Origin: an uncultured Desulfobacter sp.
GTDB lineage: Bacteria > Desulfobacterota > Desulfobacteria > Desulfobacterales > Desulfobacteraceae
DNA length: 64,000 bases
Assembly (NCBI GenBank): GCA_963665095.1
Contig: OY762069.1
Span: forward strand, 1,056,001 to 1,120,000
Direction: 5' to 3'
The translations under genes and the position numbers were made by a program. This document shows positions 40,739-59,457 of the stretch, in pieces (position 1 is the first letter of the stretch; every line of letters starts with the position of its first letter). The notes below the pieces were generated by a model that was not told the DNA's origin, did not search any database, and saw nothing but the letters and a program-made list of their open reading frames with translations.

Positions 40739-41050
40739 ATGATCAATGTTACCCCGCCTGCTCAAAAGCAGGTTAAAATGTATTTTGAAGGCAAAGAAAT
40801 TTCTCCAATAAGAATTTTCCTTAACAGTGCAGGATGTGGCGGCCCCAGTCTTGCCATGGCCCTGGATGAAAAAAAAGAGAGTGATGCTGTTTATACCCAT
40901 GACGGCATAGACTACATTATGGATAAAGATCTGCTGGAAAAAGCGTCTCCCATTCAGGTAAACTTTTCCGGCACCGGGTTTGTTCTTGAGTCCAGTCTTA
41001 AACCAGCCCCAGGGTGCACAGGTTGCGCCGGATCCTGTTGCGGGGATTAA
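40739..41050 (+). CDS. HesB/IscA-like protein (Cys form)
   Basis: INVTPPA, IRIFL..GCGGPSLAMALDE, C-terminal CTGCAGSCC. Confidence 0.85.
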   Translation: MINVTPPAQKQVKMYFEGKEISPIRIFLNSAGCGGPSLAMALDEKKESDAVYTHDGIDYIMDKDLLEKASPIQVNFSGTGFVLESSLKPAPGCTGCAGSCCGD

Positions 41051-41065
41051 TACAAAGGACCCGTC

Positions 41066-41563: not shown

Positions 41564-41593
41564 TCGCTCTTTGTTCAGTGGTAATTTTTTATG

Positions 41594-41627
41594 AAAGAAT
41601 CCGGTAATTCATCGGATTCTTTTTTTT
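41594..41627 (+). terminator. Rho-independent terminator
   Basis: AAAGAATCCGG...TCGGATTCTTTTTTTT. Confidence 0.8.
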
Positions 41628-41676
41628 CAGGTTATAGCTGTTAACCAATTTCCAACAACAGACAAAGGAGATAAAA

Positions 41677-42957: not shown

Positions 42958-42966
42958 GCGGCATCT

Positions 42967-43719: not shown

Positions 43720-43749
43720 ACCACACATAATTTCCCTTCTATGAAAATA

Positions 43750-43794
43750 GGGCAAAGTTTAGGCCAGGCATCCAAAAACGTCTAAACTTTGCTC
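43750..43794. terminator. Hairpin between convergent genes
   Basis: GGGCAAAGTTTAG...CTAAACTTTGCTC. Confidence 0.55.
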
Positions 43795-43820
43795 CCACTT
43801 CTCACTGCGTGTAAAAAAAG

Positions 43821-44582
43821 TCAGACTTGGCACCAGGTCCCCACCCGGGTGGAAAAAAACATTGCCTCATCGCAAAAAGAGAAGTAGCCCCAGATAAAGG
43901 GCTGATCCTTGGCATTGAAAAACAGATGCTCCAGTCGAAAGGTGGGAGTGCCTTCCAGGGTTTGAAAACAGGCGGCTTCTTCCTTTCCCATGGCCGCTAC
44001 TTTCAGTTTTAAAAGGCCCTTTTTGATGTTGCCTTTGCTATGTTCAAGTCCGCCTTTGCCGATACAGTCCAGAAAACCGCTGAAAGAGGCAATTGTCAGA
44101 TCCTCTCTTTCAATATGCTGTGTCGCGTCATACCGCAGAAACTGATGATGATAAATCAAAGGGGTTTTGCCCTGGGTCACCATCCGCTGTAGATGGATCA
44201 CCTTGTCCCCCTTACTGATGTGCAACTTTTTAATGACATATTCAGGGGCCGGCATAATCTCAAGATAGAGCAGTTTGACCTTGGCATCATCGGGATCTTT
44301 GAAAATGTCATGGATCTTGGCCAGATCAAAGCTGACCGTATCAAAATTAAAGGGTTTGACAATTGTTCCCTTGCCCTTGGTGGTCTCAACGACACCTTGT
44401 TCCACCAGAATACGGATGGCCCGCCGGATGGTAACGGAAGAGACATCATAGCGCTCTTTGAGCTTTGCCTCAGAGGGCAGCCAGCTCCCGGGTGGATATT
44501 TTCCGTCATCAATCTGGTGCCTTAAAATGTCTACCAGTTGAGAGTAAACCGGTTGATATGCTTTTTTATCAATTTCCCACAT
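43821..44582 (-). CDS. GntR family regulator, HutC/UTRA type
   Basis: PVYSQL, LPSE..L...YDVS..TIRRAI..LV..G; C-terminal UTRA-like domain. Confidence 0.88.
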   Translation of the reverse strand: MWEIDKKAYQPVYSQLVDILRHQIDDGKYPPGSWLPSEAKLKERYDVSSVTIRRAIRILVEQGVVETTKGKGTIVKPFNFDTVSFDLAKIHDIFKDPDDAKVKLLYLEIMPAPEYVIKKLHISKGDKVIHLQRMVTQGKTPLIYHHQFLRYDATQHIEREDLTIASFSGFLDCIGKGGLEHSKGNIKKGLLKLKVAAMGKEEAACFQTLEGTPTFRLEHLFFNAKDQPFIWGYFSFCDEAMFFSTRVGTWCQV

Positions 44583-44764
44583 AGGCAACAATTTTGGCAG
44601 TTATTTTTCCATTCACATTACTGTTTCAAATTCAAAGAGCCCTTCAAAACGAGCAAACTATAGTCAGGGCCGATGACGAAGTCAATGTTTTATTACCCTT
44701 AAACATCATGCTCAAACCACTTTAAAAAAGTTTCGCGAATACTAAAAAATACAATTGACAATAT

Positions 44765-44784
44765 AAACTTATTATAATAGGTTT
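44765..44784. promoter_or_regulatory. Near-perfect palindrome in the promoter of the cytochrome-metVF operon
   Basis: AAACTTATTA|TAATAGGTTT (9/10 symmetric) just downstream of TTGACA at 44755-44760. Confidence 0.55.
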
Positions 44785-44895
44785 TCAACTCTGTTTTTGT
44801 TCCCTGATTTGAACAAAAAAACGGTTTGAACTTAAAACCGGCACCAGTATCCGTGCCCCCTGAGCCATCCTGAATTTTTTCTAGGAGTGAATTGA

Positions 44896-45534
44896 ATGCC
44901 GTTGTATGATTTTTTAACCGGCCCTGTGATGTGGGTTACAGTTGCACTTTTTGTTTCAGGCATGGTTTATAAAGCCATTCGCTTAAGACAGCTTGCATCT
45001 TTAGTACGGCCGGCAAATGATTTTTTTAACCCCAATGCCAGCTTTAAAAGGTCCTTTAAGACCTCTCTTCCCGGGCGGTATCCTGTCACCACCATTGTCT
45101 CCATTGTATTTCATCTCATCCTTTTTGTGGTTCCCCTTTTCCTGAAAGGACATAACATCCTTCTGGATGCTTCTCTTGGCATCAGCCTTCCCATGATGCC
45201 GGATCACACCGCAGACAACCTGACCATGATATGCATTTGCTGCTGCCTGTTTTTTCTTTTAAGGCGCCTGCTGGTACGGCGGGTACGGGCTATCTCGTTT
45301 TTCAGCGACTACCTGATCCTTGCCATTGTTATCCTGCCTTTTTTAACTGGATTTATCGCCTATCACCGTCTTCTGCCCTATGATACCGTGTTGAATCTGC
45401 ACATCATCACAGGCCAGCTGATGCTGGTGGCAATGCCCTATACACGACTGGCTCATATGATTGTCTTTTTTATCATGCGGATGCCCCGCCCGACAGCACG
45501 GCTCAAATTGAAAGAAAGCAGAGGGACGGTTTAA
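44896..45534 (+). CDS. NarI/TmcC/HmcE-like di-heme b membrane subunit
   Basis: About five TM segments with His pairs FH...GH and LH...TRLAH. Confidence 0.8.
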   Translation: MPLYDFLTGPVMWVTVALFVSGMVYKAIRLRQLASLVRPANDFFNPNASFKRSFKTSLPGRYPVTTIVSIVFHLILFVVPLFLKGHNILLDASLGISLPMMPDHTADNLTMICICCCLFFLLRRLLVRRVRAISFFSDYLILAIVILPFLTGFIAYHRLLPYDTVLNLHIITGQLMLVAMPYTRLAHMIVFFIMRMPRPTARLKLKESRGTV

Positions 45535-45536
45535 TT

Positions 45537-46016
45537 ATGTGGTTTATCAACAACAAAATATCCGGGAATATCGCAGCGTATACACCGGAATCGATGACAG
45601 TGCCGAAAACGTCACCGAACCCTTCCGAAATCAAGGAGATGCTTAAACAAAACGCACCGCAGATCAAACTGTTTTTTTCTGCCTGTGCCCACTGTACCTA
45701 TTGTGCAGACACCTGTTTTCTGCAGAAAAACCACGAAGATGATCCAAGCTATATGCCCTCTTTTAAGGTGATTCACTCTGTGGGCAAGCTGTATAAGAAG
45801 AGAGGAAAGGTAACCAGAGAAGAGCTTGAAGAGATCCGGGATATTTTATGGGACAAATGTGCCTTGTGCACCCGGTGCGTGTGCCCGATCCAGCTCAATA
45901 TACCGGGATTGATAGCCCTTGGCAGGAATATCTGCCGGTCCCAGGGCGCAGCGCCAAAATTTGACGGTCCGGTTCCGTCAGTTGCATTGCCTTCCAGGAA
46001 AAGTGAGGTGGCCTGA
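45537..46016 (+). CDS. 2x[4Fe-4S] helical ferredoxin (HdrC / TmcB-HmcF N-terminal-like)
   Basis: CAHCTYCADTC and CALCTRCVCP; no CCG domain. Confidence 0.8.
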   Translation: MWFINNKISGNIAAYTPESMTVPKTSPNPSEIKEMLKQNAPQIKLFFSACAHCTYCADTCFLQKNHEDDPSYMPSFKVIHSVGKLYKKRGKVTREELEEIRDILWDKCALCTRCVCPIQLNIPGLIALGRNICRSQGAAPKFDGPVPSVALPSRKSEVA

Positions 46017-46432
46017 TGGATAAAAAAAGCAAAATTTCTGTTTTCAGACCGGGCTGGTCTATGACAAAGCGCATCATCCTTGCAGGCCTGACCGCAGGAA
46101 TTCTCCTGATCGCCGTTTGCGGTTACGGTAAGGATTTTTTCCCCAATCTTCTGGTGTCTAAAAATTCCAGTCTGCCATCAGCCCATTTCCCCCATGAAGA
46201 GCACATGGGTTTTCTGGATTGTCTGGACTGCCATCATGATTATAAAAACGGCAGCAACGAACTGGATGAAGAGGATCTTTATGAAGGCAATCCGGATATT
46301 CAATGCGGCTCCTGCCATAACGGGAAAAAATCGTTTTCTTTACTTCGTGCTTTTCACCGGCAGTGTATTCAGTGCCATGCAGCTGAAAAGCAGGGTCCTG
46401 TCGTATGTGGCGAATGCCATACCAAATCCTGA
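46016..46432 (+). CDS. Tetraheme cytochrome c3 (class III, TmcA-like)
   Basis: Signal/anchor segment; FPHEEH; CLDCH, CGSCH, CIQCH, CGECH. Confidence 0.9.
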   Translation: MDKKSKISVFRPGWSMTKRIILAGLTAGILLIAVCGYGKDFFPNLLVSKNSSLPSAHFPHEEHMGFLDCLDCHHDYKNGSNELDEEDLYEGNPDIQCGSCHNGKKSFSLLRAFHRQCIQCHAAEKQGPVVCGECHTKS

Positions 46433-46492
46433 CACCGCTTTGAGCCGACCCATTAAATAAATACTATCTGTTAAAAGGAAATAGACGTTTCA

Positions 46493-47161
46493 ATGATTAA
46501 AGCAAAACTAAAACCCATTGAAGAGATCCTGGCCCGAATCGCAGGATATAAACGGGTGCTGGTCGTCGGTTGCGGCGGCTGCGTATCCGTGTGTCTGGCA
46601 GGTGGCCAGCAGGAAGTTGAACAGTTGACCAATGCCCTGGATGAACAGTCCAGAAAAGAGTTATTGGGTCATGAAATCAGCGGCTGCACAGTGGAACGTC
46701 AGTGCAATGCCCAGTTTTTAAACGAACTGGATCTCATATATAAGGATTACCACTGTCTGCTTTCCATGGCCTGCGGGGCCGGCAACCAGCTGCTGGCGGA
46801 AAGATACCCTTTTATGCCGGTATTTCCGGCAGTCAACACCATGTTCATCGGCATTGACCGCGGGCCTGGATGGTATGAAGAAAAATGTCGGGCCTGCGGG
46901 TCCTGTGTTTTAGGGTACAGCGGCGGCATCTGCCCTGTGACCCGGTGTGCCAAAGGGCTTTATAACGGGCCCTGCGGCGGCACAGACAACGGCAAATGCG
47001 AAGTGGATAAAAATGTCCCCTGTGCCTGGTATGAGATTTATCACCGCTTAAAACAGCAGGACCGGCTGGCTGATATGCTTGACATCAAGCCCCCGCCACA
47101 ATGGAAGAACACGGTACAACAGACATTGGTTCAGCCCGGATGTGCTGGACCATCTTATTAA
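46493..47161 (+). CDS. metV: Methylenetetrahydrofolate reductase Fe-S subunit MetV
   Basis: GCGGCVSVC, ERQC, MACGAG, CRACGSC..GGICPVTRCAKGLYNGPCGG. Confidence 0.9.
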   Translation: MIKAKLKPIEEILARIAGYKRVLVVGCGGCVSVCLAGGQQEVEQLTNALDEQSRKELLGHEISGCTVERQCNAQFLNELDLIYKDYHCLLSMACGAGNQLLAERYPFMPVFPAVNTMFIGIDRGPGWYEEKCRACGSCVLGYSGGICPVTRCAKGLYNGPCGGTDNGKCEVDKNVPCAWYEIYHRLKQQDRLADMLDIKPPPQWKNTVQQTLVQPGCAGPSY

Positions 47162-47280
47162 CCCGGCAGTCTGCAGGACAGGGTTTCTTTCAAAAGCCAT
47201 GCGGTTGAATACCATCTTACCCTGAGAACCGAATATACTGTAATGTCCATATTTTTTATTTTGAAAGTTAAAGAAGCATC

Positions 47281-48186
47281 ATGTCTAACACCTTAAAAGA
47301 GAAACTTGACTCCGGCCAGTTTGCAGTTACCGCGGAATTAGGTCCGCCCCAGGGCACGGATGTTGAACATATCAGAGAACGGGCATCCCATCTGAAAGGC
47401 ATTGTGGACGGGGTCAACATCACGGATAATCCGTCGGGTACCGTCAGGATGTCCAGCCTGTCCACCGCATTGATTGCTGCCCAGGAAGGCCTTGAACCCA
47501 TCTGGCAGATGACCTGCCGGGACCGCAACCGCATTGCCATGCAAAGTGAAATTTTGGGTGCCAGTGCCCTTGGCATTAAAAACCTGCTCTGTCTGTCCGG
47601 GGATCACACCACCTCGGGGAACCAGCCGGGTGCCAAAGCGGTTTACGATATTGACTCCATCCAGATGGTGGGTATGGCCGTTCGCATGCGGGATCAGCAC
47701 CTTTTTTTAACCAATGAAAAGCCTTTTACCGGCAATGTGGACCTCTTTGTGGGAGCTGCTGCCAACCCCTTTGCAGAACCTTTGGAGTTCAGGCCCTGGC
47801 GGTTGAAAAAAAAGGTGGATGCTGGAGCAGACTTTATCCAGACCCAGTGCATTTATGATATGGATCTGTTTAAAAAATGGCTGAAACAGGTCCGGGATTT
47901 AGGCGCGGATCAGTCCTGCCATATCCTTGCCGGTATTATCCCCTTAAAATCCTTAGGCATGGCAAAATTTATGGCCGGCAAGGTGGCAGGGGTTGTCATT
48001 CCCGATGCAGTCGTCAAACGAATGGCAGGGGTTCCCAAAAAGGACGGGGCCAAAGAGGGCATTAAAATCTGCTGTGAACAGATCCAGGAGTTAAAGGAGA
48101 TGAAAGGGATTCACGGGCTGCATCTCATGGCCATTGGATGGGAACACCGGGTTGAAGAAATTCTTGTCCAGGCCGGTCTTCGCTGA
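47281..48186 (+). CDS. metF: Methylenetetrahydrofolate reductase MetF
   Basis: VTAELGPP, NITDN, QMTCRDRNR, LSGD, KKVDAGADFIQTQ, HLM. Confidence 0.92.
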   Translation: MSNTLKEKLDSGQFAVTAELGPPQGTDVEHIRERASHLKGIVDGVNITDNPSGTVRMSSLSTALIAAQEGLEPIWQMTCRDRNRIAMQSEILGASALGIKNLLCLSGDHTTSGNQPGAKAVYDIDSIQMVGMAVRMRDQHLFLTNEKPFTGNVDLFVGAAANPFAEPLEFRPWRLKKKVDAGADFIQTQCIYDMDLFKKWLKQVRDLGADQSCHILAGIIPLKSLGMAKFMAGKVAGVVIPDAVVKRMAGVPKKDGAKEGIKICCEQIQELKEMKGIHGLHLMAIGWEHRVEEILVQAGLR

Positions 48187-48203
48187 TAAAACTTAATAAA
48201 GCC

Positions 48204-48253
48204 TACAAAAAAGCCTTCCGGAGTTAAATATAACTTTGGAAGGCTTTTTTGTA
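48204..48253. terminator. Bidirectional terminator
   Basis: TACAAAAAAGCCTTCC...GGAAGGCTTTTTTGTA between convergent metF and MFS. Confidence 0.85.
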
Positions 48254-48280
48254 TTAACAGTGCTGATATGTCTGTCTGAA

Positions 48281-49444
48281 TCAGGACTGCTGCACCGGTT
48301 CTGGAGACGGTTTGATTCTTAAGACGGCAATAACCACTGCCGTTGCAAGGCCGATGACCAGTCCCGCCATCAGCGGGAACCGGACATCAGGGTTCCCGGA
48401 CATCTTTGCCAGAAACGCCATATAATAAGGAGACGCAAACAGCCCGATATTGGATGTTGCCATGAAAATACCCGTGGCCATGGCTACACCTGCCGGCGAT
48501 ACTTTCATACCCAGTTCCATTATACAAGCAGGAAAAAGGGTAAACAGTCCAATGCCGCACACCCCGATGCCGCAACCCAGCATAACCAGACTGCCGGCAA
48601 AATTTGCAATGCCAAGCCCAAGGCCGATGCCAGCCATTCCAAGCGCAATGGTAAACCGCCCTGCTGTTTTAAAAACTATACCGAAAACAGCACCACCTAC
48701 CATTCCTCCAACTGTAAACATGGCAAGTACGGCACCGGTACTGGCTGCGGTCCCCAGTTTGGCATTAATAATGATGGTGGACATATTTAAAAGAACCGGC
48801 CCGTTTACCATCTGTGCAAAAGCAGATAATATTGCCAGAATAAAAACGATCATGGGCATTTTTGCCTTTTCACCGGATTCTGCAACCGGAGCTTTTTCAG
48901 GTTCCGGCAGAAAGAATATCAAAAAAACCAAAGCGATAATCCCCACAAGATGCGCCAGAAAGGAATACTGCCAGGCAATGGCACACAAAAAAGCGCCCAG
49001 CATCTGCAGAGAGATACCGCCGATATTCGCTGCGACATTGGCAACCCCCATCATATTAGCGCGTTTCTGTCCTTCATAAAATTTCAGCACCAGGGCGTTT
49101 CCCATGGGAAAAAGGATACCGAAACCAACGCCTACGAACATCCTTGTCACAAGAATCATGGTGAAGTTATCCATGAAATAGGGCATGGCCCCCCCGATGG
49201 TGAAAAACAACATACCAATAATAAGAACTGGCCGGTATCCGAATTTTTCAGCAATGGGGCCTACCACAAAGGAACTCGGGATCATGGCCAGAGAGGGCAT
49301 CGTGGAAATCATCATGATCGTGGTAAAAGGGACATCGGGAAACGCCTGGGCAAGGTTCTGAATCGCCGGCGTCATAATGCCCATACCCATCTGAATAAAA
49401 AATATCGATAGTACGGAAATAGTTGCAAAAATATTTAAACCCAT
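48281..49444 (-). CDS. MFS transporter
   Basis: 12 hydrophobic segments, GPIAEKFGYR motif A; AAGGAG RBS. Confidence 0.88.
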   Translation of the reverse strand: MGLNIFATISVLSIFFIQMGMGIMTPAIQNLAQAFPDVPFTTIMMISTMPSLAMIPSSFVVGPIAEKFGYRPVLIIGMLFFTIGGAMPYFMDNFTMILVTRMFVGVGFGILFPMGNALVLKFYEGQKRANMMGVANVAANIGGISLQMLGAFLCAIAWQYSFLAHLVGIIALVFLIFFLPEPEKAPVAESGEKAKMPMIVFILAILSAFAQMVNGPVLLNMSTIIINAKLGTAASTGAVLAMFTVGGMVGGAVFGIVFKTAGRFTIALGMAGIGLGLGIANFAGSLVMLGCGIGVCGIGLFTLFPACIMELGMKVSPAGVAMATGIFMATSNIGLFASPYYMAFLAKMSGNPDVRFPLMAGLVIGLATAVVIAVLRIKPSPEPVQQS

Positions 49445-49486
49445 TGTCTCTCTCCTTTTGTGTTACGTGATTTGATTAACAGATAT

Positions 49487-49502
49487 ATTCCTATAGAGGA
49501 CT
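49487..49502. promoter_or_regulatory. Operator copy upstream of MFS gene
   Basis: ATTCCTATAGAGGACT, 14/16 match to the palindrome at 51172. Confidence 0.6.
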
Positions 49503-49564
49503 AACTGTAAGGGTCTTTACCCCGAGGATAGTGGAAAGTCAAGCATATTTACTCAACACGATTA

Positions 49565-49597
49565 AGATGGCAGGATTTTAAAGCGATTCTGCCATCT
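49565..49597 (-). terminator. Hairpin downstream of UroD-like gene
   Basis: AGATGGCAGGAT...ATTCTGCCATCT. Confidence 0.5.
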
Positions 49598-49621
49598 ACA
49601 ATGAATGGGTTTTAAGATGTT

Positions 49622-51019
49622 TTAGTAGGTTCCGAATTTCCGGGCACTATTAAGAAAGGTATGGATATTTTCCGGATTTGCCTGGTCTATAACGGCACCG
49701 GGGAAAAGAAAAAATCCGCCGCCAGGCGCGCAGGTTTCAATCAGATCTTTACAGTACGATTCCAGCATCTCCTGGCTGCCCTGTTTGAATAAGGAGGCTG
49801 GAACATTCCCGGCAATACAGGCCCAGGGACCGATGAGAGCTTTGGCCACGGCCATGTCAATCTGGCTGAATATCCAAATTGAGCGCCCTTTTGGCAAAGG
49901 ATCAGCCGCGATTATCTCCAGGCGCTTGTCATGGGCGCCTTCCAGAAACAGCATGGGGATACATCCCTGGTCAATCAATCCCTGAAGCGTGGCTCTGAGA
50001 GAGGGCCAGTAAAAAGTTTTAAACTGGTCCCGGGATAAAAAAATATCCGCGCCCTTATGCAGGGGCATATAAATAAAAGGATTCCCTGTTGTCTCAGCCG
50101 CCTGGACACCGATCTGTACCGCCATGGGAACAAGGGACTCCATGGCAGCCAGCACCTTTTCCGGACACCGGTAGAGGTCTTTCATAATTCCCATGGTACA
50201 GCGCATGGTATCCCCTATAAAATCAAACGGGGCAAAAGAGTATCCTTTAAAAATTGAGGGCACACCAAACGTCTCAACAAGCCTGGAAGAGGCTGAGTCG
50301 ACCAACGATGCAGTCTCATGGGCCTTGTCGGCAGCATCTAAAAGGGTATCAATGGCTTTTCTGGCCAGGGTACCCTTTCCAAGAGCGGCAAGGGTCCCTG
50401 TATACCCCACAAGCTCTTTAAAATTAAAAATATTCGGCAGCGTTTTTAACCCTGCAATCTCCGGAAAAATCCGGGGCAGATATTTACGAAGCAAAAACCC
50501 CTCCGGCTGCCAGATCAGCTCATCATATTCATCCTGCCTCATGTATTCATCTTCTATATACTGATAGGAGATACTGTCGGGAAGTGCCTGCCCGGACCTG
50601 CGGGAGCCGGGCCAGCGAACAAGTCTCGACCCTAAAATATCCAGCATGGGGCCTGAATACAGCCCCGGCAGTACAAAGTAATCAAGCTCAAACTCCTGGT
50701 GAAGCCGGGTGGTGGCAACAAGCACCTTGTCAGGATCATAAAATGCATCCCTGGGCTGAACGCCGCCATAGCCAAGGATATAGCCAATGGTCATCAGATG
50801 CACCGGCACCTGATCCGGCTCTTTCAAGGCCAACACATCAAGGACACGCCCGGCTCTTTTTCTGTATCTGCCAACGACTTTCTGATCAGCGCAATGATCA
50901 ATCAGGCCAAGCCATCGCTTGCTGTAAAAATCAAATCTCTCCTCTCCTGTCATACCCTTCCAGTTGTCAGGAAGAGGATGCGTGCCGGATAAAGATCCAT
51001 TTTTATTTTCATCTCTCAT
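49622..51019 (-). CDS. UroD/MtaA-fold putative substrate:corrinoid methyltransferase (long form)
   Basis: LKEPDQVP, EYMRQDEYDEL, APFDFIGDTMR, MPLHKG, ACIAGNVP, CAPGGGF. Confidence 0.75.
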   Translation of the reverse strand: MRDENKNGSLSGTHPLPDNWKGMTGEERFDFYSKRWLGLIDHCADQKVVGRYRKRAGRVLDVLALKEPDQVPVHLMTIGYILGYGGVQPRDAFYDPDKVLVATTRLHQEFELDYFVLPGLYSGPMLDILGSRLVRWPGSRRSGQALPDSISYQYIEDEYMRQDEYDELIWQPEGFLLRKYLPRIFPEIAGLKTLPNIFNFKELVGYTGTLAALGKGTLARKAIDTLLDAADKAHETASLVDSASSRLVETFGVPSIFKGYSFAPFDFIGDTMRCTMGIMKDLYRCPEKVLAAMESLVPMAVQIGVQAAETTGNPFIYMPLHKGADIFLSRDQFKTFYWPSLRATLQGLIDQGCIPMLFLEGAHDKRLEIIAADPLPKGRSIWIFSQIDMAVAKALIGPWACIAGNVPASLFKQGSQEMLESYCKDLIETCAPGGGFFLFPGAVIDQANPENIHTFLNSARKFGTY

Positions 51020-51171
51020 TGGGGTTGTCCTAGCGGATAAAGAGTCAACTGCTTTTTTGCTACTGGCTTCAGGTACTGGATCAATATCATATTATAAATT
51101 CGGGTCAATATCTTTCAAATAAAAACAAAAAATTTATTGACTTTTGATTCGAAATGGTAATATTTTATTCA

Positions 51172-51187
51172 AGTCCTATATAGGACT
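51172..51187. promoter_or_regulatory. Perfect 16-bp palindromic operator (HutC/GntR-like GT-N4-TA-N4-AC)
   Basis: AGTCCTATATAGGACT in a divergent intergenic region, downstream of a TTGACT -35 element. Confidence 0.7.
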
Positions 51188-51268
51188 ATAATTATTAACC
51201 TGGCTTTAAGGCAGCTGAAAAAACGTCCTTAAAGGAACTTGATTAGTATAACAACTAAAGAGGTGGTC

Positions 51269-52072
51269 ATGATTATTATTGGTGAAAAAATTAACGGTGC
51301 CATCCCCTCTGTGGCCGAAGCCATTGCCAAAAAAGATGCTGATTTTATCAAAAACCTTGCCGTCACCCAGACAGAAGCGGGAGCTGCTTTCATTGATGTA
51401 TGTGCCTCCACAGATGTCTCCATTGAACTTGAAACAATGAAATGGCTGATTGATATTGTCCAGGATGCCACAGACACCCCCATTGCCGTGGACAGTCCCG
51501 ATGCCGGCATCTGCGCTGCGGCCATCGCATTCTGCAACAAACCGGGCCTGATCAACTCTGTTTCCCTGGAAGGGGACAAAATTGATGTAGTATTTCCCGT
51601 GATTGCAGACACCAAATGGGAGTGTGCCGCGCTTTTGTGCGACGACACAGGCATCCCCAAAACCGCTGAAAAGCGCCTTGAGGTGTTTACCGGCATCATG
51701 GCCCGGGCCAAAGAATTTAAAATTGATCCCTCCCGACTGCACATCGACCCCCTGGTTGAAATGCTGTGTACAGCAGAGGACGGCATCAACGCCATCGTTG
51801 AGGTGATGCGGGAAATCAAACGGCAGTACCCCACCATCCACGTCACTGGCGGCGCATCCAATATTTCATTTAACCTTCCGGCCAGAAAATTTGTCAACCA
51901 GGCATTTCTGATTCTGGCCATGGGCGCAGGCATGGACAGTGCCATTATCAACCCCCTTCACAAACATATGATGGGGCTGATTTACGCCACCGAGGCGCTT
52001 TTAGGCAACGATGAATACTGTATGGAATATATCGAAGGATACAGAGAAGGACTTTTCGGCCCTGTAAAGTAA
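51269..52072 (+). CDS. Methyl-corrinoid:tetrahydrofolate methyltransferase (AcsE/MT2 pterin-binding)
   Basis: MIIIGEKING, IAVDSP, LINSVS, IDPLV, GASNISFNLP, GMDSAI. Confidence 0.9.
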   Translation: MIIIGEKINGAIPSVAEAIAKKDADFIKNLAVTQTEAGAAFIDVCASTDVSIELETMKWLIDIVQDATDTPIAVDSPDAGICAAAIAFCNKPGLINSVSLEGDKIDVVFPVIADTKWECAALLCDDTGIPKTAEKRLEVFTGIMARAKEFKIDPSRLHIDPLVEMLCTAEDGINAIVEVMREIKRQYPTIHVTGGASNISFNLPARKFVNQAFLILAMGAGMDSAIINPLHKHMMGLIYATEALLGNDEYCMEYIEGYREGLFGPVK

Positions 52073-52113
52073 CATCGGGGGCAAAAACTTACTTTTTAAA
52101 AAGGAGTGTAAAC

Positions 52114-52749
52114 ATGGCAAAAATTGAAGAAGTAAAAGCAAACGTCGAAAAAGGCAAACGTAAACTTGTTCCCGGTCTGGTCCAGGAAGCCCTTGATGAG
52201 GGCAGTTCTGCCCAACAGATTCTTGATGTCATGGTTGATGCCATGGGTGTTGTGGGAGAAAAATTTTCCTCTGGACAGATCTTTGTACCTGAAATGCTGA
52301 TGGCAGCCAAGGCCATGGGCGCAGGAGTCGACATTATCAAACCGCTGATGGCTGGCGACGCAGGCTCCTCTCTGGGTACCTGTGTGATCGGTACAGTCCA
52401 GGGCGACCTTCATGACATTGGTAAAAACCTGGTCTGCATGATGATTGAAAGTGTGGGCTTCAATATGATTGACCTGGGCGTTGACGTTGCCCCTGAGCAG
52501 TTCATCCAGGCGGTAAAAGACAATGAAAACGTCAAACTGGTTGCCTGCTCCGGTCTTCTTTCCACCACCATGCCTGCCTTAAAACAGACAGTTGAAACAT
52601 TAAAATCCTGCGGCCTGAACGGTTTTAAAGTCATTGTTGGCGGAGCCCCTGTCACCAAGGAATTTGCTGAAGAGATCGGTGCGGACGGATACGCATCAGA
52701 TGCCGGCGGCGCGGCCACTAAAGCCAAAGAGCTGGTTACCGCAGCTTAA
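52114..52749 (+). CDS. Corrinoid (B12-binding) methyl carrier protein
   Basis: Cap domain FVPEMLMAAKAM; GDLHDIGKNLV (DxHxxG), DLGVDV, SGLL, VGGA. Confidence 0.93.
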   Translation: MAKIEEVKANVEKGKRKLVPGLVQEALDEGSSAQQILDVMVDAMGVVGEKFSSGQIFVPEMLMAAKAMGAGVDIIKPLMAGDAGSSLGTCVIGTVQGDLHDIGKNLVCMMIESVGFNMIDLGVDVAPEQFIQAVKDNENVKLVACSGLLSTTMPALKQTVETLKSCGLNGFKVIVGGAPVTKEFAEEIGADGYASDAGGAATKAKELVTAA

Positions 52750-52788
52750 AATCAGATAACATTTACTCGGCACAGGAGGAGGATACTT

Positions 52789-53766
52789 ATGCTGACGATA
52801 AAACAAAACCTGCTTGAAACCATGAAAGGGGGAAACCCTGACCGGTTTGTCAAGCAGTACGAATTTTTTGAAATCATCCTTGAGGCACCGGGCGCAAAGT
52901 TTGCCACACCGGGCCAGACCATTGTAAACGAATGGGGCGTCACCTTTTCATGGCCTGAAGACCAGATCGGCGCATTCCCGGTCCATGATGACGAGCATAT
53001 TCTGCTGAAAGATATCACCCAATGGAAAGATATCGTAAAAGCCCCTTCCCTTGAGTTTTCCGATGAAGACTGGGCCCCGGCTGTCGCACATGCCAACTCT
53101 GTTGATCGCAATGAAAAATATGTGGCACCTTTCTTTGCTCCGGGTCTGTTTGAAATGACCCACCACATGATGGGTATGGAAAATGCCATGATGAATCTGT
53201 ATGAAGAACCGGAACTCATGCATGAACTCATCGACTACATCGCCGATTATGAGATCAGAAAAGCCAAAGTCTTCATCGACCGCCTGAAACCCGATGCCCT
53301 GTTCCACCATGATGACTGGGGCGGACAGATCTCCACCTTCATGTCTCCGGATATGTTCAAGGAATTTTATCTTGAACCATATAAGAGGATCTATAAATTC
53401 TGGAAAGATAACGGGGTTGAAGTTGTTGTCCATCACAGTGACTCCTATGCTGCCACACTGGTTCCGTTTATGATTGAAATGGGCATCGATATCTGGCAGG
53501 GCGTGATGACCACCAACGACACACCGGAACTGATTAAAAAATACGGCGATAAAATCACCTTTATGGGCGATGTGGACAGCGGCCCTCTGGATCACCAGAA
53601 CTGGGATGCAAAAGTGATTGCCGAGCATGTGGAAAAAGCGTGCAAAAGATGTGGCAAGCACTACTTCATCCCCTGCCTTACCCAGGGGCTGGGATTCAGT
53701 TCCTTTCCCGGTGTTTACGATGCGGCCAGTGAGGCCATTGAAAAAATGAGCAAAGAGATGTTTTAA
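52789..53766 (+). CDS. UroD-fold substrate:corrinoid methyltransferase (O-demethylase MT1-like)
   Basis: NEWGVTF, GLFE...MMGMENA, HHDDWG, HHSDS, FMGD; in operon with MT2 and corrinoid protein. Confidence 0.8.
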   Translation: MLTIKQNLLETMKGGNPDRFVKQYEFFEIILEAPGAKFATPGQTIVNEWGVTFSWPEDQIGAFPVHDDEHILLKDITQWKDIVKAPSLEFSDEDWAPAVAHANSVDRNEKYVAPFFAPGLFEMTHHMMGMENAMMNLYEEPELMHELIDYIADYEIRKAKVFIDRLKPDALFHHDDWGGQISTFMSPDMFKEFYLEPYKRIYKFWKDNGVEVVVHHSDSYAATLVPFMIEMGIDIWQGVMTTNDTPELIKKYGDKITFMGDVDSGPLDHQNWDAKVIAEHVEKACKRCGKHYFIPCLTQGLGFSSFPGVYDAASEAIEKMSKEMF

Positions 53767-53873
53767 AAATCATTGCGACTTTTCTCCCTCTTAAAAGGGT
53801 AACATGGCCAGGGTTGTTTATGCAGTACCGTTGAACACCGTTTCAACCTGGCTATTGCCCTTTCCCTCACAAC

Positions 53874-53908
53874 TCGGGGACACGATGCGTGATTATCGTG
53901 TCCCCCGA
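53874..53908. repeat. GC-rich inverted repeat (REP-like/terminator)
   Basis: TCGGGGACACGAT-N8-ATCGTGTCCCCCGA. Confidence 0.55.
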
Positions 53909-53943
53909 ATTATTTAGCTTGATTTTGATTTCGAGCCTCAATC

Positions 53944-54633
53944 CTAGGTCAAGGAGGAAAGATCTCGCTTGGAAGTCATGGCCATCTTAAAATAATCAAC
54001 GGCTTTGGCCGCGTCAGAAAACCAGATATCGGCTTTTACCTGTTTATTGACCAGTTCATCCATACAATACCCGCCAACAATGATAAGATGCTTGTTGGTT
54101 GTTTCAGTCTTGCGTATCTCGCTCACCGCCTCCGTAAGATTATCCAGGCAGTTTGTCAGAAGGCAGCTGATGGCAATAAAATCGGGCTCAAGTGTTTTGG
54201 TTCTTTCCACAAAGGTATATGCAGGGACATCCACACCAAGGTCAGTCACCTTAAAGCCGTTACAGATCAGCATATCCTTGATAATATTTTTTCCAAGATC
54301 ATGGATATCGCCTTTGATTGTGCCTAAAAGGACATGCCCCAGCGTGCCTTGGCTATCAGTTTCAACCATCTCGAAGGCTGTCAGAAAATCGGCAGCCTGG
54401 CGCATGATCTCTCCTGCCATAATGAGTGCGGAGATATAAAATTCGCCCTTTTCAAACCCCAGACCGACGTTTTTGACCCCTTCCATGCAAAAAGAGAGCA
54501 GCTCCGCCGTGCTGCACCCTTTTCCGTACATTTTTTTAAGCTGAATCAGGCTCTCTTTTTCCTTAAGCGAAGAAATCAGGTCAATCAGTTTTTCTTTTTC
54601 AGCCATAAGCTCATTATCACTGAACTCACTCAT
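53944..54633 (-). CDS. Second corrinoid-binding protein, coupled to GntR
   Basis: FYISALIMAGEI cap; GDIHDLGKNII, DLGVDV, SCLL, VGG; start overlaps GntR stop. Confidence 0.88.
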   Translation of the reverse strand: MSEFSDNELMAEKEKLIDLISSLKEKESLIQLKKMYGKGCSTAELLSFCMEGVKNVGLGFEKGEFYISALIMAGEIMRQAADFLTAFEMVETDSQGTLGHVLLGTIKGDIHDLGKNIIKDMLICNGFKVTDLGVDVPAYTFVERTKTLEPDFIAISCLLTNCLDNLTEAVSEIRKTETTNKHLIIVGGYCMDELVNKQVKADIWFSDAAKAVDYFKMAMTSKRDLSSLT

Positions 54634-55378
54634 TCCACACTCCCACCCGGCTTATCATGGGCATCTGCTGTGTTGGAACTATAAACCAACCATAAGCACA
54701 GGGTTTATCCTTAAAATCGTAATAACAATACTCCAGCCTGAAAACCAGTTCCCCCTCCTGGATTTCAAGCAGTTCAGCCTCCTGCTTATTCACTGCAGCC
54801 GGCAAAAGTTTCAATGTCCCCTTTTTATAGCCGCAGTTCTCATTACTGAAAAACAGGTCTGACAACCCTGTTGTTTCCAGCATACTCTCCACCACCGGTG
54901 ATCTGGGATCAAAGGGCAGGTAGGCGATCTGAAAACAAAACGGGGTTTCATCATTTAAAATAAGCCGCTCAACCAGAATCACAGGGCTGTTCTCACTGAG
55001 CTCAAGCAGCTTACCCTCACTGCCCTGAACCCGGACAATACTCGACTTAAACACCTTAGCCTTCAAGGTTTCAGTATTAGACAGTACTTTATCAAGTGCC
55101 TCAAGGTCAAAGGTGGTGGCACCCACTTCGATTTTTTTAACAAAGGTGCCGCTGCCGTGAATCCGTTCAACAAGCCCCTCTTCCACAAGAACCCCTACGG
55201 CCTGGCGTACGGTCATGGGACTTACATTATATTCCTGGGCAAGATTTGCCTCAGACGGGATTCGGAGCCCCGGACGAAGACGGCCGGAGGCAATATCTTC
55301 CTTGATAATAAATGCAAGCTGGGTATAAACGGGCAGAGAACCTCTTTTCTTTTCCACAACCTTACCCAATTTATTCAA
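54626..55378 (-). CDS. GntR family regulator, HutC/UTRA type (TTG start)
   Basis: PVYTQL, IPSEANLAQEYNVSPMTVRQAV, GSGTFV; AAGGAG RBS. Confidence 0.9.
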   Translation of the reverse strand: MNKLGKVVEKKRGSLPVYTQLAFIIKEDIASGRLRPGLRIPSEANLAQEYNVSPMTVRQAVGVLVEEGLVERIHGSGTFVKKIEVGATTFDLEALDKVLSNTETLKAKVFKSSIVRVQGSEGKLLELSENSPVILVERLILNDETPFCFQIAYLPFDPRSPVVESMLETTGLSDLFFSNENCGYKKGTLKLLPAAVNKQEAELLEIQEGELVFRLEYCYYDFKDKPCAYGWFIVPTQQMPMISRVGVWNE

Positions 55379-55525
55379 TTCTCCTTGTATTATTGGCAGA
55401 CTGCCTCATGACTGAATAGTACATAACACAGGAAAAGGGTCAAGTAAAATTGATATTCATATGCTTATATACAGGAATATGATACAGTCATGCCGCATGA
55501 ATGGTGTTTAACGCTTTGAGGTACA

Positions 55526-56194
55526 ATGGGAAAAGTAAGAAAGAAAAGAAAACTGATCTGCTGCCGCGCACTTTCTCATCTGATTGAACCCATGGTTGAC
55601 AGGATTGATCCGCACATGGAGCGGGTCATTCTGCCGATACGGCTTCATTTGAATCAACACAACCTGAACCAAAGCCTTCAGGAGGAGATTACCAGAATTG
55701 AAGAAACCGGGGGTGATATCCTCCTTGGATACGGTTTGTGCGGCAGGGGTGTTGAAGGGGTTAGCTCCGGTAAAAGCCGGCTGATTATCCCCAAAGTGGA
55801 TGACTGCGTCGGTGCCATTTTAGGTTCCAAGGCGCGGCATAAGCGCATTCTTGATCAGAATGCCGGCACTTTTTTTCTGGAACCTTCATGGATTGATACG
55901 GACGTGGATGTCTTTGCCCAGTGTCTCAAAGGGCTTGACAAAATTCCTGAGGAGTACCAGCAGGACATTGTGGACCTGGCATTAAAACACTATTCACGGC
56001 TTGTGCTGATTCATCACAAAGAAGACAAAACAGCCATGGCAGCTGACAGATGCCGCAGCCTTGCAAAACAGTACGGCCTTGAATTTGAACAACTTCAGTC
56101 TGATTTAACGCTGCTTGAAGACTTTTCAAAAGGCAACATTGATTCAGACAGATTTATTATCGTTGAACCGGGAGATAAGGTCCCCTATTTTTAA
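55526..56194 (+). CDS. DUF1638 domain protein
   Basis: LICC, LH, ILLGYGLCG, PKVDDC..AILGS, GTFFL..SW. Confidence 0.85.
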   Translation: MGKVRKKRKLICCRALSHLIEPMVDRIDPHMERVILPIRLHLNQHNLNQSLQEEITRIEETGGDILLGYGLCGRGVEGVSSGKSRLIIPKVDDCVGAILGSKARHKRILDQNAGTFFLEPSWIDTDVDVFAQCLKGLDKIPEEYQQDIVDLALKHYSRLVLIHHKEDKTAMAADRCRSLAKQYGLEFEQLQSDLTLLEDFSKGNIDSDRFIIVEPGDKVPYF

Positions 56195-56215
56195 TGAAGA
56201 CACCAATTTGAGTTT

Positions 56216-56767
56216 ATGAAAACAGAACAGATAACAGCCATTACAGAGAAATTTTTTGATCACACAAAGGACATCACCTCCTCATCAGTGCCATTTGATG
56301 AACAGGTCCGCGTCATGTGCGAACAGAATATGTGCGGCCAGCTTGGAAAATGCTGGACATGTCCGCCTGCGGTCGGTTCCCTTGAAACCCTGCACGCAGG
56401 ATTATCCCTTTTCACCCGCTTCATGATCTTTGACAAGGTCTACCAGCTTGAAGACAGTTATGACTGGGAGGGCATGGTGGAAAGCCAGAAAGATTTTACA
56501 GCCAGAGTGGTTGCTGCCAAAAAAGAGATCCGCCCACTGCTTGAAGAATCTGACCCTGATTTTCTTATTTTAGGAGCCGGGTCCTGTTCCCTGTGCAAGA
56601 CCTGCAGCTATCTTTCCCAGGAGCCCTGCCGAAATCCGGATGATGCGGTGACTTCTGTGGAGGCCTTTGGCATAGATGCCATGACCATGATGGGGCAAAA
56701 CAATTTGAAATATAACAATGGCGCGAATACCGTGACTTACATCGGCGGCATTTTTTACAAAGGGTAA
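56216..56767 (+). CDS. DUF2284 Cys-rich metal-binding protein
   Basis: CEQNMCG..GKCWTCPP, GAGSCSLCKTC...PCRNP, SVEAFGID. Confidence 0.85.
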   Translation: MKTEQITAITEKFFDHTKDITSSSVPFDEQVRVMCEQNMCGQLGKCWTCPPAVGSLETLHAGLSLFTRFMIFDKVYQLEDSYDWEGMVESQKDFTARVVAAKKEIRPLLEESDPDFLILGAGSCSLCKTCSYLSQEPCRNPDDAVTSVEAFGIDAMTMMGQNNLKYNNGANTVTYIGGIFYKG

Positions 56768-56812
56768 GCCCCAATATGGAGCAGGTCCCCAAAAACGGAC
56801 AAAAAAAACCGA

Positions 56813-57697
56813 CTATTTTTCGGCAAGTTCGTATATCTGTTCCAGCCTGCCTATAAAATCGGCGCTGTAAAGACCGCAGCTGGTCCCAAACACCAGACTG
56901 GTCATTTCAGTATTCCGGATCAGGGCGGTGAAACGGTCCATGCTGTCAGTAGCCAGGGTATCCGCCTGGAGGTCCTCCACCTCGATTCCGCCTAAGAGAA
57001 CTATGTCGGTATCAAACCTGGGGCCCAGGGAGGAGAAATCATTGATCCGACTCTGGATAGCAGCCAGCCCGTCCAGCTGCCAGGCGGCGAGCATGGGGAC
57101 CAGGGCATCAAGCCGGCCACAGGAGTGGAGAAGAACTGCTTTTTGTTTTTCCCTGAATCCAGCCACAATCTTTGAATAAAAAGGCGTGCACAGGGCATCA
57201 AGATCTTTGGGATTGACCAGGGGACCGCCCTCCCCTGCCAGATCATCGGTGAAGACCACTCCGTCAACAGGCAGGTCCGCCACCTTTTGGGCAAGGTCCC
57301 GGGCCACGGTCAGAAAGGTGTGGTACTGCTCCTTGACCGCCTCGAAGCCTTGGGTCCACAGACTTAAGGTCTCAAACATGCCAAGGGTATTGACCATCTC
57401 CTGGAACGGGCCGTCAATGACGGCAAGAACGGGTCCGTCCCAGGTGAGGGCGGCGGTTTCAAGGTCTGACAGGCTGAAATACCGGTAACCAAGATCGGGC
57501 TTGACCGACCCCTGCGCCAGAACCGGCAGGCAGACCAGACTGTGGCCCAACTGATCGGCCAGGTGCAGGTGGCCCGCGACAGTATCATGGTCCAGGTCCT
57601 TGAACAGACCTGTGCCCATCCATACCTCGCCTTTGGCAATATTTTTTCCGGTGCGGGCCTGAATCCGGGCTTTAAGATGTTCCATTGGCGTGGTCAT
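56813..57697 (-). CDS. Divergent UroD-fold protein
   Basis: DGPFQ, VFTDDLAG, LLHSCG, LLGGI, FGTSCGL. Confidence 0.7.
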   Translation of the reverse strand: MTTPMEHLKARIQARTGKNIAKGEVWMGTGLFKDLDHDTVAGHLHLADQLGHSLVCLPVLAQGSVKPDLGYRYFSLSDLETAALTWDGPVLAVIDGPFQEMVNTLGMFETLSLWTQGFEAVKEQYHTFLTVARDLAQKVADLPVDGVVFTDDLAGEGGPLVNPKDLDALCTPFYSKIVAGFREKQKAVLLHSCGRLDALVPMLAAWQLDGLAAIQSRINDFSSLGPRFDTDIVLLGGIEVEDLQADTLATDSMDRFTALIRNTEMTSLVFGTSCGLYSADFIGRLEQIYELAEK

Positions 57698-57894
57698 GGT
57701 CGGGACCTCCTTAAATATTTAAACTTTAACCTGGCAGGTCGGATACGTTCAACGCCTGTCAACCGCAACAGGATACGAAAGGTAACCCCTCAGCAGTATG
57801 ATTACAAGACAGACAGCTTAAGGTCCCTGACCGGCCTTGTCAAATATTTGAACTGATTTTTTATTTTAGAGACAGCAGCAGAAAGGAAACACCC

Positions 57895-59457
57895 ATGCAG
57901 AACAACCAGGCAACCATCACCATATTACCCCATAAAAGAACCATCCTTGCCACCAGAGGCACCACCCTTTTAGAGGCCCTGATACATAAAAGCATATTTT
58001 TGCGAACCGACTGCGGGGGCAAGGGAGTATGCGGCAAATGCCTGGTGGAGGTCATCGGTCCGGACAACAGTGTGGAACCTGTTTTATCCTGCAGCCACCG
58101 CATTGAATCCGACCTTTGCATCCGAATCCCTGAAACCTCCATGCTCTCCTCCCACATCATGAGCAAGGCCCAGATCTTTTTCCCTGAAAGCTTTAATGAA
58201 AAATTTAAACACTCTCAGGGTCCAGACACCTTTGGTATTGCCGTTGATCTTGGCACCACCACCATTGCGGTCTACCTTTGCAACATGGCCAAAGGAGAGG
58301 TGATCTCCTCTCTGGCCGTAAAAAACCCCCAGGCCATATACGGAGACGATGTCATGAGCCGCATCGGGGTGATTGACCAGGATCCTGACAATCTTAAAAA
58401 GCTTCAGGGCTTAGTGGTGAAAAGTATTGAATGGGGAGCAGGCCAGCTGATCTCAAAAGAAAAGGACCCGTCCATCACCATCTGCGGAATGGCAGTGGTA
58501 GGCAATCCTACCATGATCCATATCCTGGCCGGCGTCAACCCCACATCCATTGGAATTGCCCCTTACCAGCCGGCCTTCCATGAATCCAGACAGTTTGACT
58601 CAGCATCTTTGGGATTTGAATCCCTGAACTGCGAATTGCAGGTTCTTCCCCAGGTCTCCGGCTTTCTTGGCGGTGATATACTGGCCGCCGCCATTGCCGT
58701 GGATCTTGACAACCTTGCCCCGGGAACTTTGCTGGTGGACCTTGGCACCAACGGAGAGCTGATCCTTAAGGGTCATGACCGGCTATTCGCCACCTCCTGC
58801 GCCACAGGTCCAGCCTTTGAAGGGGCCAGTCTTGCCTGCGGCATGCAGGCCATTCCCGGCTCCATAAACTCCGTTTCCATTGGCCCGGATCAAAAAGTAA
58901 AAGAACTGACCACTATCCAGGCGGAAAAAGGCCCTGGGGTGCCGGCATCAGGTATTTGCGGCGCCGGTGTCCTCCAGGCTGCAGCCCAGCTGTGCGAACA
59001 CGGCATTATTAAACCTGCCGGACAGTTTATCAACGAAGAAAAAGAGTATGTACTTGTACCCGAAGACCATTCTGCAGGCCAATCCCGGATCTATATCAGC
59101 CAGAAAGATATCCGTTCCATCCAGCTTGGTAAATCAGCGCTTATTTCAGGCATTGAATTCTTATGTGACCGGGCAGGGTTTGACATTCCGAAATCCATTC
59201 TAATTGCAGGGGCATTCGGATCCCATCTGAGCAAGGAGGTACTTTTGCGACTGGGTATCCTGCCCGATATGGAGATATCAAAACTGATCACCATGGGCAA
59301 TGCAGCAGGTTCCGGAGCCGTGATGGTACTCTGTGATCCGGCGTATGTCGGGTTGGCCCAGAAAATGGCAGATAAAATTGAGGTAGTCAGTCTGGAAACC
59401 AACATGGCATTCCAGGAGCGGTTCATCGAAAACTTAAGCTTTCCAGACCCTGAATAA
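57895..59457 (+). CDS. ASKHA-type reductive activator of corrinoid proteins (RACo/RamA-like, DUF4445)
   Basis: N-terminal 2Fe-2S CGGKGVCGKC; DLGTTT, NPQ..YGDDVMSRI, DLGTNGE, CATGPAFEG, AGAFG, GNAAG. Confidence 0.9.
   Translation: MQNNQATITILPHKRTILATRGTTLLEALIHKSIFLRTDCGGKGVCGKCLVEVIGPDNSVEPVLSCSHRIESDLCIRIPETSMLSSHIMSKAQIFFPESFNEKFKHSQGPDTFGIAVDLGTTTIAVYLCNMAKGEVISSLAVKNPQAIYGDDVMSRIGVIDQDPDNLKKLQGLVVKSIEWGAGQLISKEKDPSITICGMAVVGNPTMIHILAGVNPTSIGIAPYQPAFHESRQFDSASLGFESLNCELQVLPQVSGFLGGDILAAAIAVDLDNLAPGTLLVDLGTNGELILKGHDRLFATSCATGPAFEGASLACGMQAIPGSINSVSIGPDQKVKELTTIQAEKGPGVPASGICGAGVLQAAAQLCEHGIIKPAGQFINEEKEYVLVPEDHSAGQSRIYISQKDIRSIQLGKSALISGIEFLCDRAGFDIPKSILIAGAFGSHLSKEVLLRLGILPDMEISKLITMGNAAGSGAVMVLCDPAYVGLAQKMADKIEVVSLETNMAFQERFIENLSFPDPE

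Follow-up and report, generated by a model that had tools for sequence, protein, structure and literature searches.

A cytochrome b, short ferredoxin, cytochrome c3 and MetVF gene module in Desulfobacter as a candidate membrane-anchored methylene-tetrahydrofolate reductase

We analysed a stretch of 64,000 nucleotides (hereafter the window; C1:1056001-1120000, GenBank contig OY762069.1) from the 6.9-Mb single-contig genome of an uncultured Desulfobacter sp. (assembly GCA_963665095.1). On the plus strand of positions 44896-48186 of the window, five co-oriented open reading frames (ORFs) encode a cytochrome b, a short ferredoxin, a tetrahaem cytochrome c3, and MetV and MetF, the two subunits of a methylene-tetrahydrofolate (methylene-THF) reductase (MTHFR) (Table 1). 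They are separated by 2, -1, 60 and 119 bp. A first-pass annotation, made from the letters of the window, had described these genes and gaps as a candidate membrane- and cytochrome-coupled MTHFR, and the ORF coordinates bear out the arrangement. The 2-bp gap and the 1-bp overlap among the first three genes fit translational coupling.

Table 1. The five-gene module and neighbouring features, with positions in the window
Feature	Position	Strand	Basis
GntR/UTRA regulator, divergent	43821..44591	-	PF00392 + PF07702
Gene 1, cytochrome b, TmcC/HmcE/NarI-type, predicted di-haem, 212 aa	44896..45534	+	PF02665, NCBIfam TmcC
Gene 2, short 2x[4Fe-4S] ferredoxin, 159 aa	45537..46016	+	PF13534, NCBIfam TmcB N-terminal part
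Gene 3, tetrahaem cytochrome c3, TmcA-like, 138 aa	46016..46432	+	PF02085, PF14522, NCBIfam TmcA
Gene 4, MetV, Fe-S small subunit of MetVF-type methylene-THF reductase, 222 aa	46493..47161	+	PF12225
Gene 5, MetF, catalytic flavoprotein subunit of methylene-THF reductase, 301 aa	47281..48186	+	PF02219
Two-way intrinsic terminator between convergent metF and MFS genes	48210..48251	.	read off the sequence
Corrinoid methyl-transfer island	48281..59457	.	Pfam + NCBIfam

The second gene encodes only the ferredoxin part of a TmcB-like protein. It scored 28.3 bits against PF13534 and 76.6 bits against NCBIfam TmcB (NF045724; cut-off 735), the latter match covering only positions 24-137 of the 430 of the model, and the profile scan found no CCG domain and no match to PF02754. 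Weaker matches were obtained to HmcF (second-best NCBIfam model), DsrK (27.8 bits) and an RnfC model (17.5 bits). This agrees with the earlier observation that the Fe-S subunit is a ferredoxin without the CCG domain and that MetVF comes next, as ORFs matching PF12225 and PF02219 indeed follow. The stop of gene 2 coincides with the start of gene 3, and therefore there is no space for a decayed CCG remnant. For the ferredoxin, a sequence search of the PDB gave only marginal matches (fumarate reductase Fe-S subunit, E 0.04; HdrC, 5odc_C, E 0.46).

When gene 2 was searched against 61 related genomes, with the window's own genome counted, the matches fell into two peaks. A short orthologue (frame of 131-169 aa, identity 49-78%, E at most 3e-39) was present in 15 of the 61 genomes, namely in 5/25 Desulfobacter genomes, 7/12 genomes of other genera of the family and 3/24 genomes of other families of the order. 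The remaining matches, two exceptions aside, were TmcB/HmcF/DsrK proteins of 443-490 aa with 25-36% identity. One exception is a 455-aa TmcB-like protein (46% identity) in a plain TmcCBA cluster without MetV (L044). The other, in a genome of the same genus (G013:C1:3430305-3430613), is a 155-aa frame (27% identity, E 1e-10) that lies 3.5 kb from the only MetV of G013 and may be a broken or independently shortened TmcB.

All 65 aligned short copies end about where TmcB runs on into its CCG part. Eight cysteines (C50, C53, C56, C60, C108, C111, C114 and C116) are invariant in these 65 sequences and C133 is found in at least 90% of them; the second motif, CxxCxxCxCP, is two residues shorter than that of TmcB. 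In a tree of the ferredoxin domain (148 columns, quick IQ-TREE), the 65 short forms were separated from 17 full-length TmcB/HmcF/DsrK proteins by one split with an SH-aLRT support of 100. The first-pass annotation had set beforehand that a CCG gene simply deleted in this genome would speak against its proposal. The comparison with relatives rules such a local deletion out, since the short form is conserved and monophyletic.

The cytochromes on either side of the ferredoxin resemble Tmc subunits as well. Gene 1 scored 23.3 bits against PF02665, barely over the cut-off of 22.9, and its best NCBIfam match was TmcC (NF045723) with 170.5 bits, under the equivalog cut-off of 240, followed by HmcE with 144.2 bits. 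The protein has about five hydrophobic segments, and its histidines H73, H86, H169 and H187 are invariant in 32 aligned sequences, including two true TmcC. With a score over the gathering cut-off and four putative histidine haem ligands, gene 1 is predicted to belong to the NarI/DsrM/HmcE family. Gene 3 matched NCBIfam TmcA (NF045722) with 80.6 bits, under the cut-off of 114. It carries CxxCH motifs at residues 69, 97, 117 and 131, and four such motifs were present in 57/57 orthologues. A hydrophobic segment at residues 16-39 is its N-terminal signal or anchor. Among the five proteins, hydrophobic segments occur only in the cytochrome b and at this c3 N-terminus, and none are found in the ferredoxin, MetV or MetF.

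Next to these Tmc-like genes, MetV matched PF12225 with 122.3 bits (cut-off 23) and MetF matched PF02219 with 159 bits (cut-off 24). The side-by-side position of metV and metF marks the pair, as judged from the genes, as a MetVF-type MTHFR (type II core). MetF shares 87% identity with its counterpart in the Desulfobacter curvatus module. Ten cysteines are invariant in 65 MetVs; the cofactor content known for the C. ljungdahlii enzyme is FMN and two [4Fe-4S] clusters in MetV (PMC8760232; published work is cited here and below for the portions of the papers that our search covered). For MetV, the PDB sequence search gave no relative of solved structure (best E 0.19).

Cytochrome b and MetV are close companions of the short ferredoxin. 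Both genes adjoin it in each of the 14 relatives that have the short form, in at least five gene orders. The order cytb-fer-c3-metV-metF is found in the window, in four Desulfobacter and in Desulfospira; other relatives have metF-cytb-fer-c3-metV, c3-metV-cytb-fer-metF, cytb-fer-metV or metV-cytb-fer. We also surveyed public genomes by a profile scan with one genome per species, which gave 410 pattern matches, 382 of them encoding a relative of the short ferredoxin. Linkage was counted in the best 80 of the 382 stretches, a neighbour being a gene on the same strand within 3.5 kb. Cytochrome b was adjacent in 78/80 of these loci, MetV in 77/80 and c3 in 65/80, and the three where MetV is missing are contigs 3.0, 3.6 and 5.1 kb long. 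The carriers are spread across several families. The search for metVF beside NarI-like and c3 genes, which the first-pass annotation had suggested, thus revealed a recurrent arrangement.

As a control we took 20 MetV genes of the same genomes that do not adjoin a short ferredoxin. All 20 are metV-metF pairs, and 18 to 19 of them have clear MvhD and/or HdrA neighbours; the exceptions are L143, with no MvhD or HdrA match, and L136, with only a weak MvhD match 2 kb off. Cytochrome b or the short ferredoxin was found at 0/20 of these control loci. At the module, MetV stayed linked although the gene order is permuted, which speaks for a functional unit and against inherited synteny. Our main argument that the genes may form one functional unit is this linkage, as it outlasts repeated rearrangement and MetV often stands between c3 and cytochrome b.

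The MetV phylogeny points in the same direction. In the MetV tree, 74 module MetVs were separated from 20 Hdr-linked MetVs by one split (ultrafast bootstrap 100, SH-aLRT 94), and the MetV of the window falls within the cytochrome-b-linked clade. This tree was built without two very long rows (L143 and L138), and its Hdr-linked sample came from 14 genomes of one order. A quick tree of all 96 rows gave the same split (SH-aLRT 92).

The module shares its plan with TmcABCD of Desulfovibrio vulgaris and other sulfate reducers, in which a periplasmic tetrahaem c3 and a di-haem cytochrome b anchor are combined with a cytoplasmic Fe-S protein. TmcC, TmcB and TmcA are the best NCBIfam matches of genes 1 to 3, and the four histidine ligands are common with true TmcC. 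However, the module lacks the CCG domain and TmcD and has MetV and MetF instead, and its three Tmc-like proteins all stay under the equivalog cut-offs. No ORF for TmcD was found between 44591 and 48281, and tblastn with the genome's own TmcD gave no match in the module loci of the 14 relatives or in the 80 public loci. HmcE and HmcF of HmcABCDEF (D. vulgaris) are the second-best NCBIfam matches of genes 1 and 2, whereas HmcA, HmcB, HmcC and HmcD are absent from the window and the HmcF-like protein lacks its CCG half. An Hmc-style version was seen in another genome of the same family (L041 2652-8906, G034:C1), where a 555-aa multihaem HmcA-like protein, an HmcB-like Fer4_11 protein and an HmcC-like NrfD protein stand directly in front of the trio (cytochrome b, short ferredoxin, MetV), which has no metF beside it. 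The DsrMK core of DsrMKJOP likewise combines a NarI-type cytochrome b with a cytoplasmic ferredoxin-domain protein, but DsrK has a catalytic CCG domain that acts on DsrC, while the module has no CCG and a folate enzyme attached.

On the MTHFR side, four types have been distinguished: I with MetF, II with MetVF, III with RnfC2 and IV with HdrCBA-MvhD (PMC8760232). The type IV enzyme, MetVF-HdrCBA-MvhD of Moorella thermoacetica and Sporomusa ovata, shares with the module a MetVF core that itself has no NAD(P)H site, along with additional Fe-S partners, and the short ferredoxin has the domain type of HdrC, to which it gave the weak PDB match mentioned above. The S. ovata complex is loosely membrane-attached, via MvhD-HdrCBA, and bidirectional (PMC9430772, PMC8760232). 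In contrast, the module has no HdrA, HdrB, HdrC or MvhD gene, and its membrane link would be the integral cytochrome b and the periplasmic cytochrome c of the operon itself. It also differs from type III RnfC2-MetVF, as no RnfC-like ORF was found in the module or its flanks.

Membranes of Thermacetogenium phaeum show a quinone-analogue-dependent MTHFR activity, and oxidising methyl-THF with NAD+ is unfavourable (PMC6895022). Membrane association of MTHFR has been proposed or shown only via Hdr/Mvh proteins and unlinked cytochromes, in S. ovata (PMC9430772) and T. phaeum (PMC6895022), and in the drawing of a 2021 review the membrane-integral MetFV partner is still a hypothetical one (PMC8578096). 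Genome papers on Desulfobacterium autotrophicum (PMC2702500), Desulfococcus multivorans (PMC5109826), syntrophic sulfate-reducing bacteria (PMC10553843) and Desulfobacteraceae (PMC11887813) name Tmc and MetF without connecting them in the text covered. The literature searched holds no description of a cytochrome b/ferredoxin/c3/MetVF module, with a mention in a figure or supplementary table possible. The impression in the first-pass annotation that this coupling type had not been described is therefore supported, as none of the published types I-IV has this set of partners (PMC8760232).

The same genome has a second MetVF locus outside the window, which was found by tblastn with the five proteins (G000:C1:2059266-2068895, minus strand; L001 5266-14895). 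Its gene order is HdrA-like (1005 aa)-MvhD-MetV-MetF-NifU-like-TmcD-TmcC-TmcB (453 aa, with CCG)-TmcA. The Tmc subunits of this locus all score over the NCBIfam cut-offs (TmcD 496/440, TmcC 293/240, TmcB 812/735, TmcA 151/114). The module MetV is 49% identical to the MetV of this locus (C1:2064742-2065344) and the module MetF 54% to its MetF. Judged by gene content, a canonical Hdr/Mvh-linked MetVF thus lies beside a true TmcDCBA in this genome, which also has the compact module without CCG. MetV and TmcB were also seen 4-5 kb apart in six further Desulfobacter genomes (G003, G005, G016, G021, G022 and G024), and the Hdr-type MetVF may also be tied to a Tmc complex in Desulfobacter.

The first-pass annotation had placed the five genes behind one promoter and before one terminator. 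The terminator could be confirmed. Downstream of metF lies a 16-bp stem (48210-48225/48232-48247) with the loop AAATAT, preceded by an A-run and followed by a T-run; it was read from the sequence, and the terminator scan did not list it. The promoter was not confirmed, as a consensus scan found no promoter-like site on the plus strand upstream of the first ORF. Between the divergent GntR gene and gene 1, a perfect TTGACA (44755-44760) and a perfect TATAAT (44773-44778) are present with a spacing of only 12 nt. They are too close for a standard sigma-70 promoter and may belong to an operator region. Two adjoining hairpins (CGGTTT...AAACCG and GGCAC...GTGCC) at 44822-44857, 40-75 nt 5' of the start of gene 1, likely lie in a 5' leader; the terminator scan listed them on the minus strand. 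An Rfam scan of 40000-60000 with E up to 0.1 gave 0 matches and thus no known riboswitch or leader.

The divergent GntR/UTRA protein is a possible regulator of the module. An orthologue with 61% identity has the same position upstream of the Desulfospira module, while the four Desulfobacter relatives lack it there. Immediately upstream of the GntR gene (41677-43719) are a 2-hydroxyacyl-CoA dehydratase D-component (PF06050, 401 bits) and a BcrAD/BadFG-type activator ATPase, with no second dehydratase subunit seen adjoining them.

Directly downstream, the module is flanked by a corrinoid methyl-transfer island. It comprises an MFS transporter, two methyltransferases of the URO-D type with 465 and 325 aa, one methyl-THF:corrinoid methyltransferase, a pair of corrinoid proteins and a second GntR regulator, and is closed at 55526-59457 by a DUF1638 protein, a DUF2284 protein and a RACo-type corrinoid activase. 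The pterin-binding protein scored 359 bits (cut-off 259) for methyltetrahydrofolate:corrinoid methyltransferase, and the 465-aa URO-D methyltransferase had no NCBIfam model match. By its domains this is the usual parts list for moving methyl groups from a substrate to THF, and the island is likely the source of methyl-THF. We rejected it as a conserved neighbour of the module, since in a flank comparison with three relatives of the same genus (D. curvatus, G021 and G022) and a Desulfospira genome the island was absent and unrelated genes took its place.

The genome also holds two Fhs, FolD and one ACS gene, so methyl-THF made here could be oxidised to CO2. Desulfobacter species oxidise acetyl-CoA by the tricarboxylic acid cycle and not by the Wood-Ljungdahl pathway, according to a 2025 paper (PMC11887813), which makes a methyl-group-oxidising role likelier here than acetate oxidation. 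At G000:C1:1816327-1818533, the second Fhs is followed by an 86-aa frame that matches the first 59 positions only of the FolD C-terminal domain and may be a truncated folD.

Taken together, we consider it probable that the five genes encode one membrane-anchored MTHFR complex that oxidises methyl-THF, which would be a fifth type of coupling for MTHFR. In the cytoplasm, MetF and MetV would bind to the two-cluster ferredoxin, which would be seated on the di-haem cytochrome b, with the tetrahaem c3 at the periplasmic side. MetV would thereby take the position that the CCG domain holds in TmcB/HmcF/DsrK. We infer this physical binding from the gene data, as we do the direction of electron flow and the acceptor. 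In this genome, the neighbouring corrinoid methyltransferases would turn substrate methyl groups into methyl-THF, and the complex would run oxidatively. The flavin of MetF would oxidise methyl-THF (about -200 mV), and the electrons would pass from the [4Fe-4S] clusters of MetV to those of the ferredoxin and on to the haems b. They may then leave to menaquinone (about -74 mV) or, via c3, to the pool of periplasmic cytochromes from which sulfate respiration is fed. The complex would thereby get round the unfavourable NAD+ reduction, and methylene-THF could go on to CO2 through FolD and Fhs, which are both encoded. With -200 versus -74 mV, the step to menaquinone would be downhill (PMC6895022, PMC8578096).

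Several observations weigh against this proposal. MetF is adjacent in 38/80 public loci and 9/14 relatives only, and with MetF so often not adjacent it is cytochrome b, ferredoxin and MetV that make up the conserved core, not the enzyme as a whole. In the MetF tree, module and Hdr-linked copies were not separated (4 label changes), and the window MetF stands in a four-row Desulfobacter/Desulfospira clade. As MetV splits by partner and MetF does not, MetV rather than MetF would be the specialised, co-inherited partner of the membrane module. Moreover, the promoter scan found no site upstream of gene 1, and metF may be transcribed separately from the genes before it, given the 119-bp gap and a weak hairpin in front of metF (47127-47152). 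Since in the flank comparison the island was absent from the other four genomes, the oxidative direction is argued from the context of this genome alone. Tmc and Hmc complexes are regarded as transmembrane conduits and not as quinone reductases, which leaves the acceptor uncertain.

The placement of MetV in the CCG position drew no support from a fold comparison. When an AlphaFold2 model of MetV (mean pLDDT 82) was compared with 48,161 PDB chains, only generic Rossmann-like alpha/beta folds were matched (best Z 9.0), with no CCG/HdrB fold among the 50 listed. Natural fusions are weak evidence on the same side: the longer MetV fusions found were three MetV-MetF and one RnfC-like, and none with cytochrome b or ferredoxin. 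We rejected a 489-aa frame joining MetV and cytochrome b in a Desulfotignum metagenome-assembled genome (L087 4483-5949) as a fusion. Shortly before the junction its MetV diverges at the C-terminus, and another copy from this genome (L109) has MetV and cytochrome b as separate genes, so a frameshift error is more likely.

The main rival keeps the same machine and reverses it. Electrons from H2 or formate would enter via c3 and reduce methylene-THF, and as far as the machinery itself goes this direction is equally possible. H2-dependent methylene-THF reduction by S. ovata membranes has been shown (PMC9430772), the ACS, Fhs and FolD genes would serve this direction too, and elsewhere the module adjoins pterin-binding or HdrA genes and not demethylase genes. 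On the other hand, the module here lies beside a methyl-transfer island that should produce methyl-THF, a second, HdrA/MvhD-linked MetVF is kept for other duties, and no c3 gene adjoins in 15/80 public loci, some of these contigs being cut. Methylene-THF respiration for CO2 fixation or acetogenesis, as proposed for S. ovata, therefore seems to us unlikely, though a serious contender, as the physiological role.

Less probable still is that MetV acts as a redox adaptor of general use and stands in for the CCG domain with a non-folate substrate, so that cytochrome b, ferredoxin and MetV serve another cytoplasmic partner and MetF is an occasional neighbour. It would account for the absence of MetF nearby in 42/80 public loci and 4/14 relatives (L041, L042, L043 and L046), and a MetV-like domain is also fused to RnfC-type proteins, as seen in our fusion search (see also PMC8760232). 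Yet the only known role of MetV is that of a MetF partner (PMC8760232), the genomes with a module lacking MetF hold several other metF copies, and MetF, when present, is within the module or directly flanking it on the same strand.

The idea that a degenerate Tmc-like remnant merely lies upstream of an ordinary soluble MetVF is already disfavoured and highly improbable: the low NCBIfam scores of the three Tmc-like proteins and the promoter scan would suit it, but the linkage survives in at least five gene orders, in 77/80 loci and in several families, every cofactor ligand is invariant, short ferredoxins and module MetVs each fall into a single clade, and the spacing of genes 1-3 fits translational coupling.

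We therefore favour the methyl-THF-oxidising membrane complex over these alternatives. A wider version of it would be a respiratory, membrane-integral methyl-THF:menaquinone/cytochrome c3 oxidoreductase with MetV in the place of the CCG domain of a Tmc-type complex. This would be the long-postulated membrane link of the Wood-Ljungdahl methyl branch and, being widespread in marine Desulfobacterales, a main entry of methyl and acetate electrons into sulfate respiration. For this version we regard the case as evenly balanced.

Whether the reduction or oxidation of methylene-THF is tied to the membrane, and hence to energy conservation, is a long-running question of the Wood-Ljungdahl pathway. The module offers a concrete, gene-encoded candidate partner, in which an integral cytochrome b, together with an Fe-S adaptor and a cytochrome c of the periplasm, is genetically locked to MetV in hundreds of species. 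It is carried by cultured strains, among them Desulfobacter curvatus DSM 3379 and Desulfocicer vacuolatum DSM 3385, and can thus be tested. If the proposal is true, it would explain how methyl-THF electrons at -200 mV reach the respiratory chain of sulfate reducers without NADH, and in this Desulfobacter the demethylation of methylated compounds would be tied to sulfate respiration.

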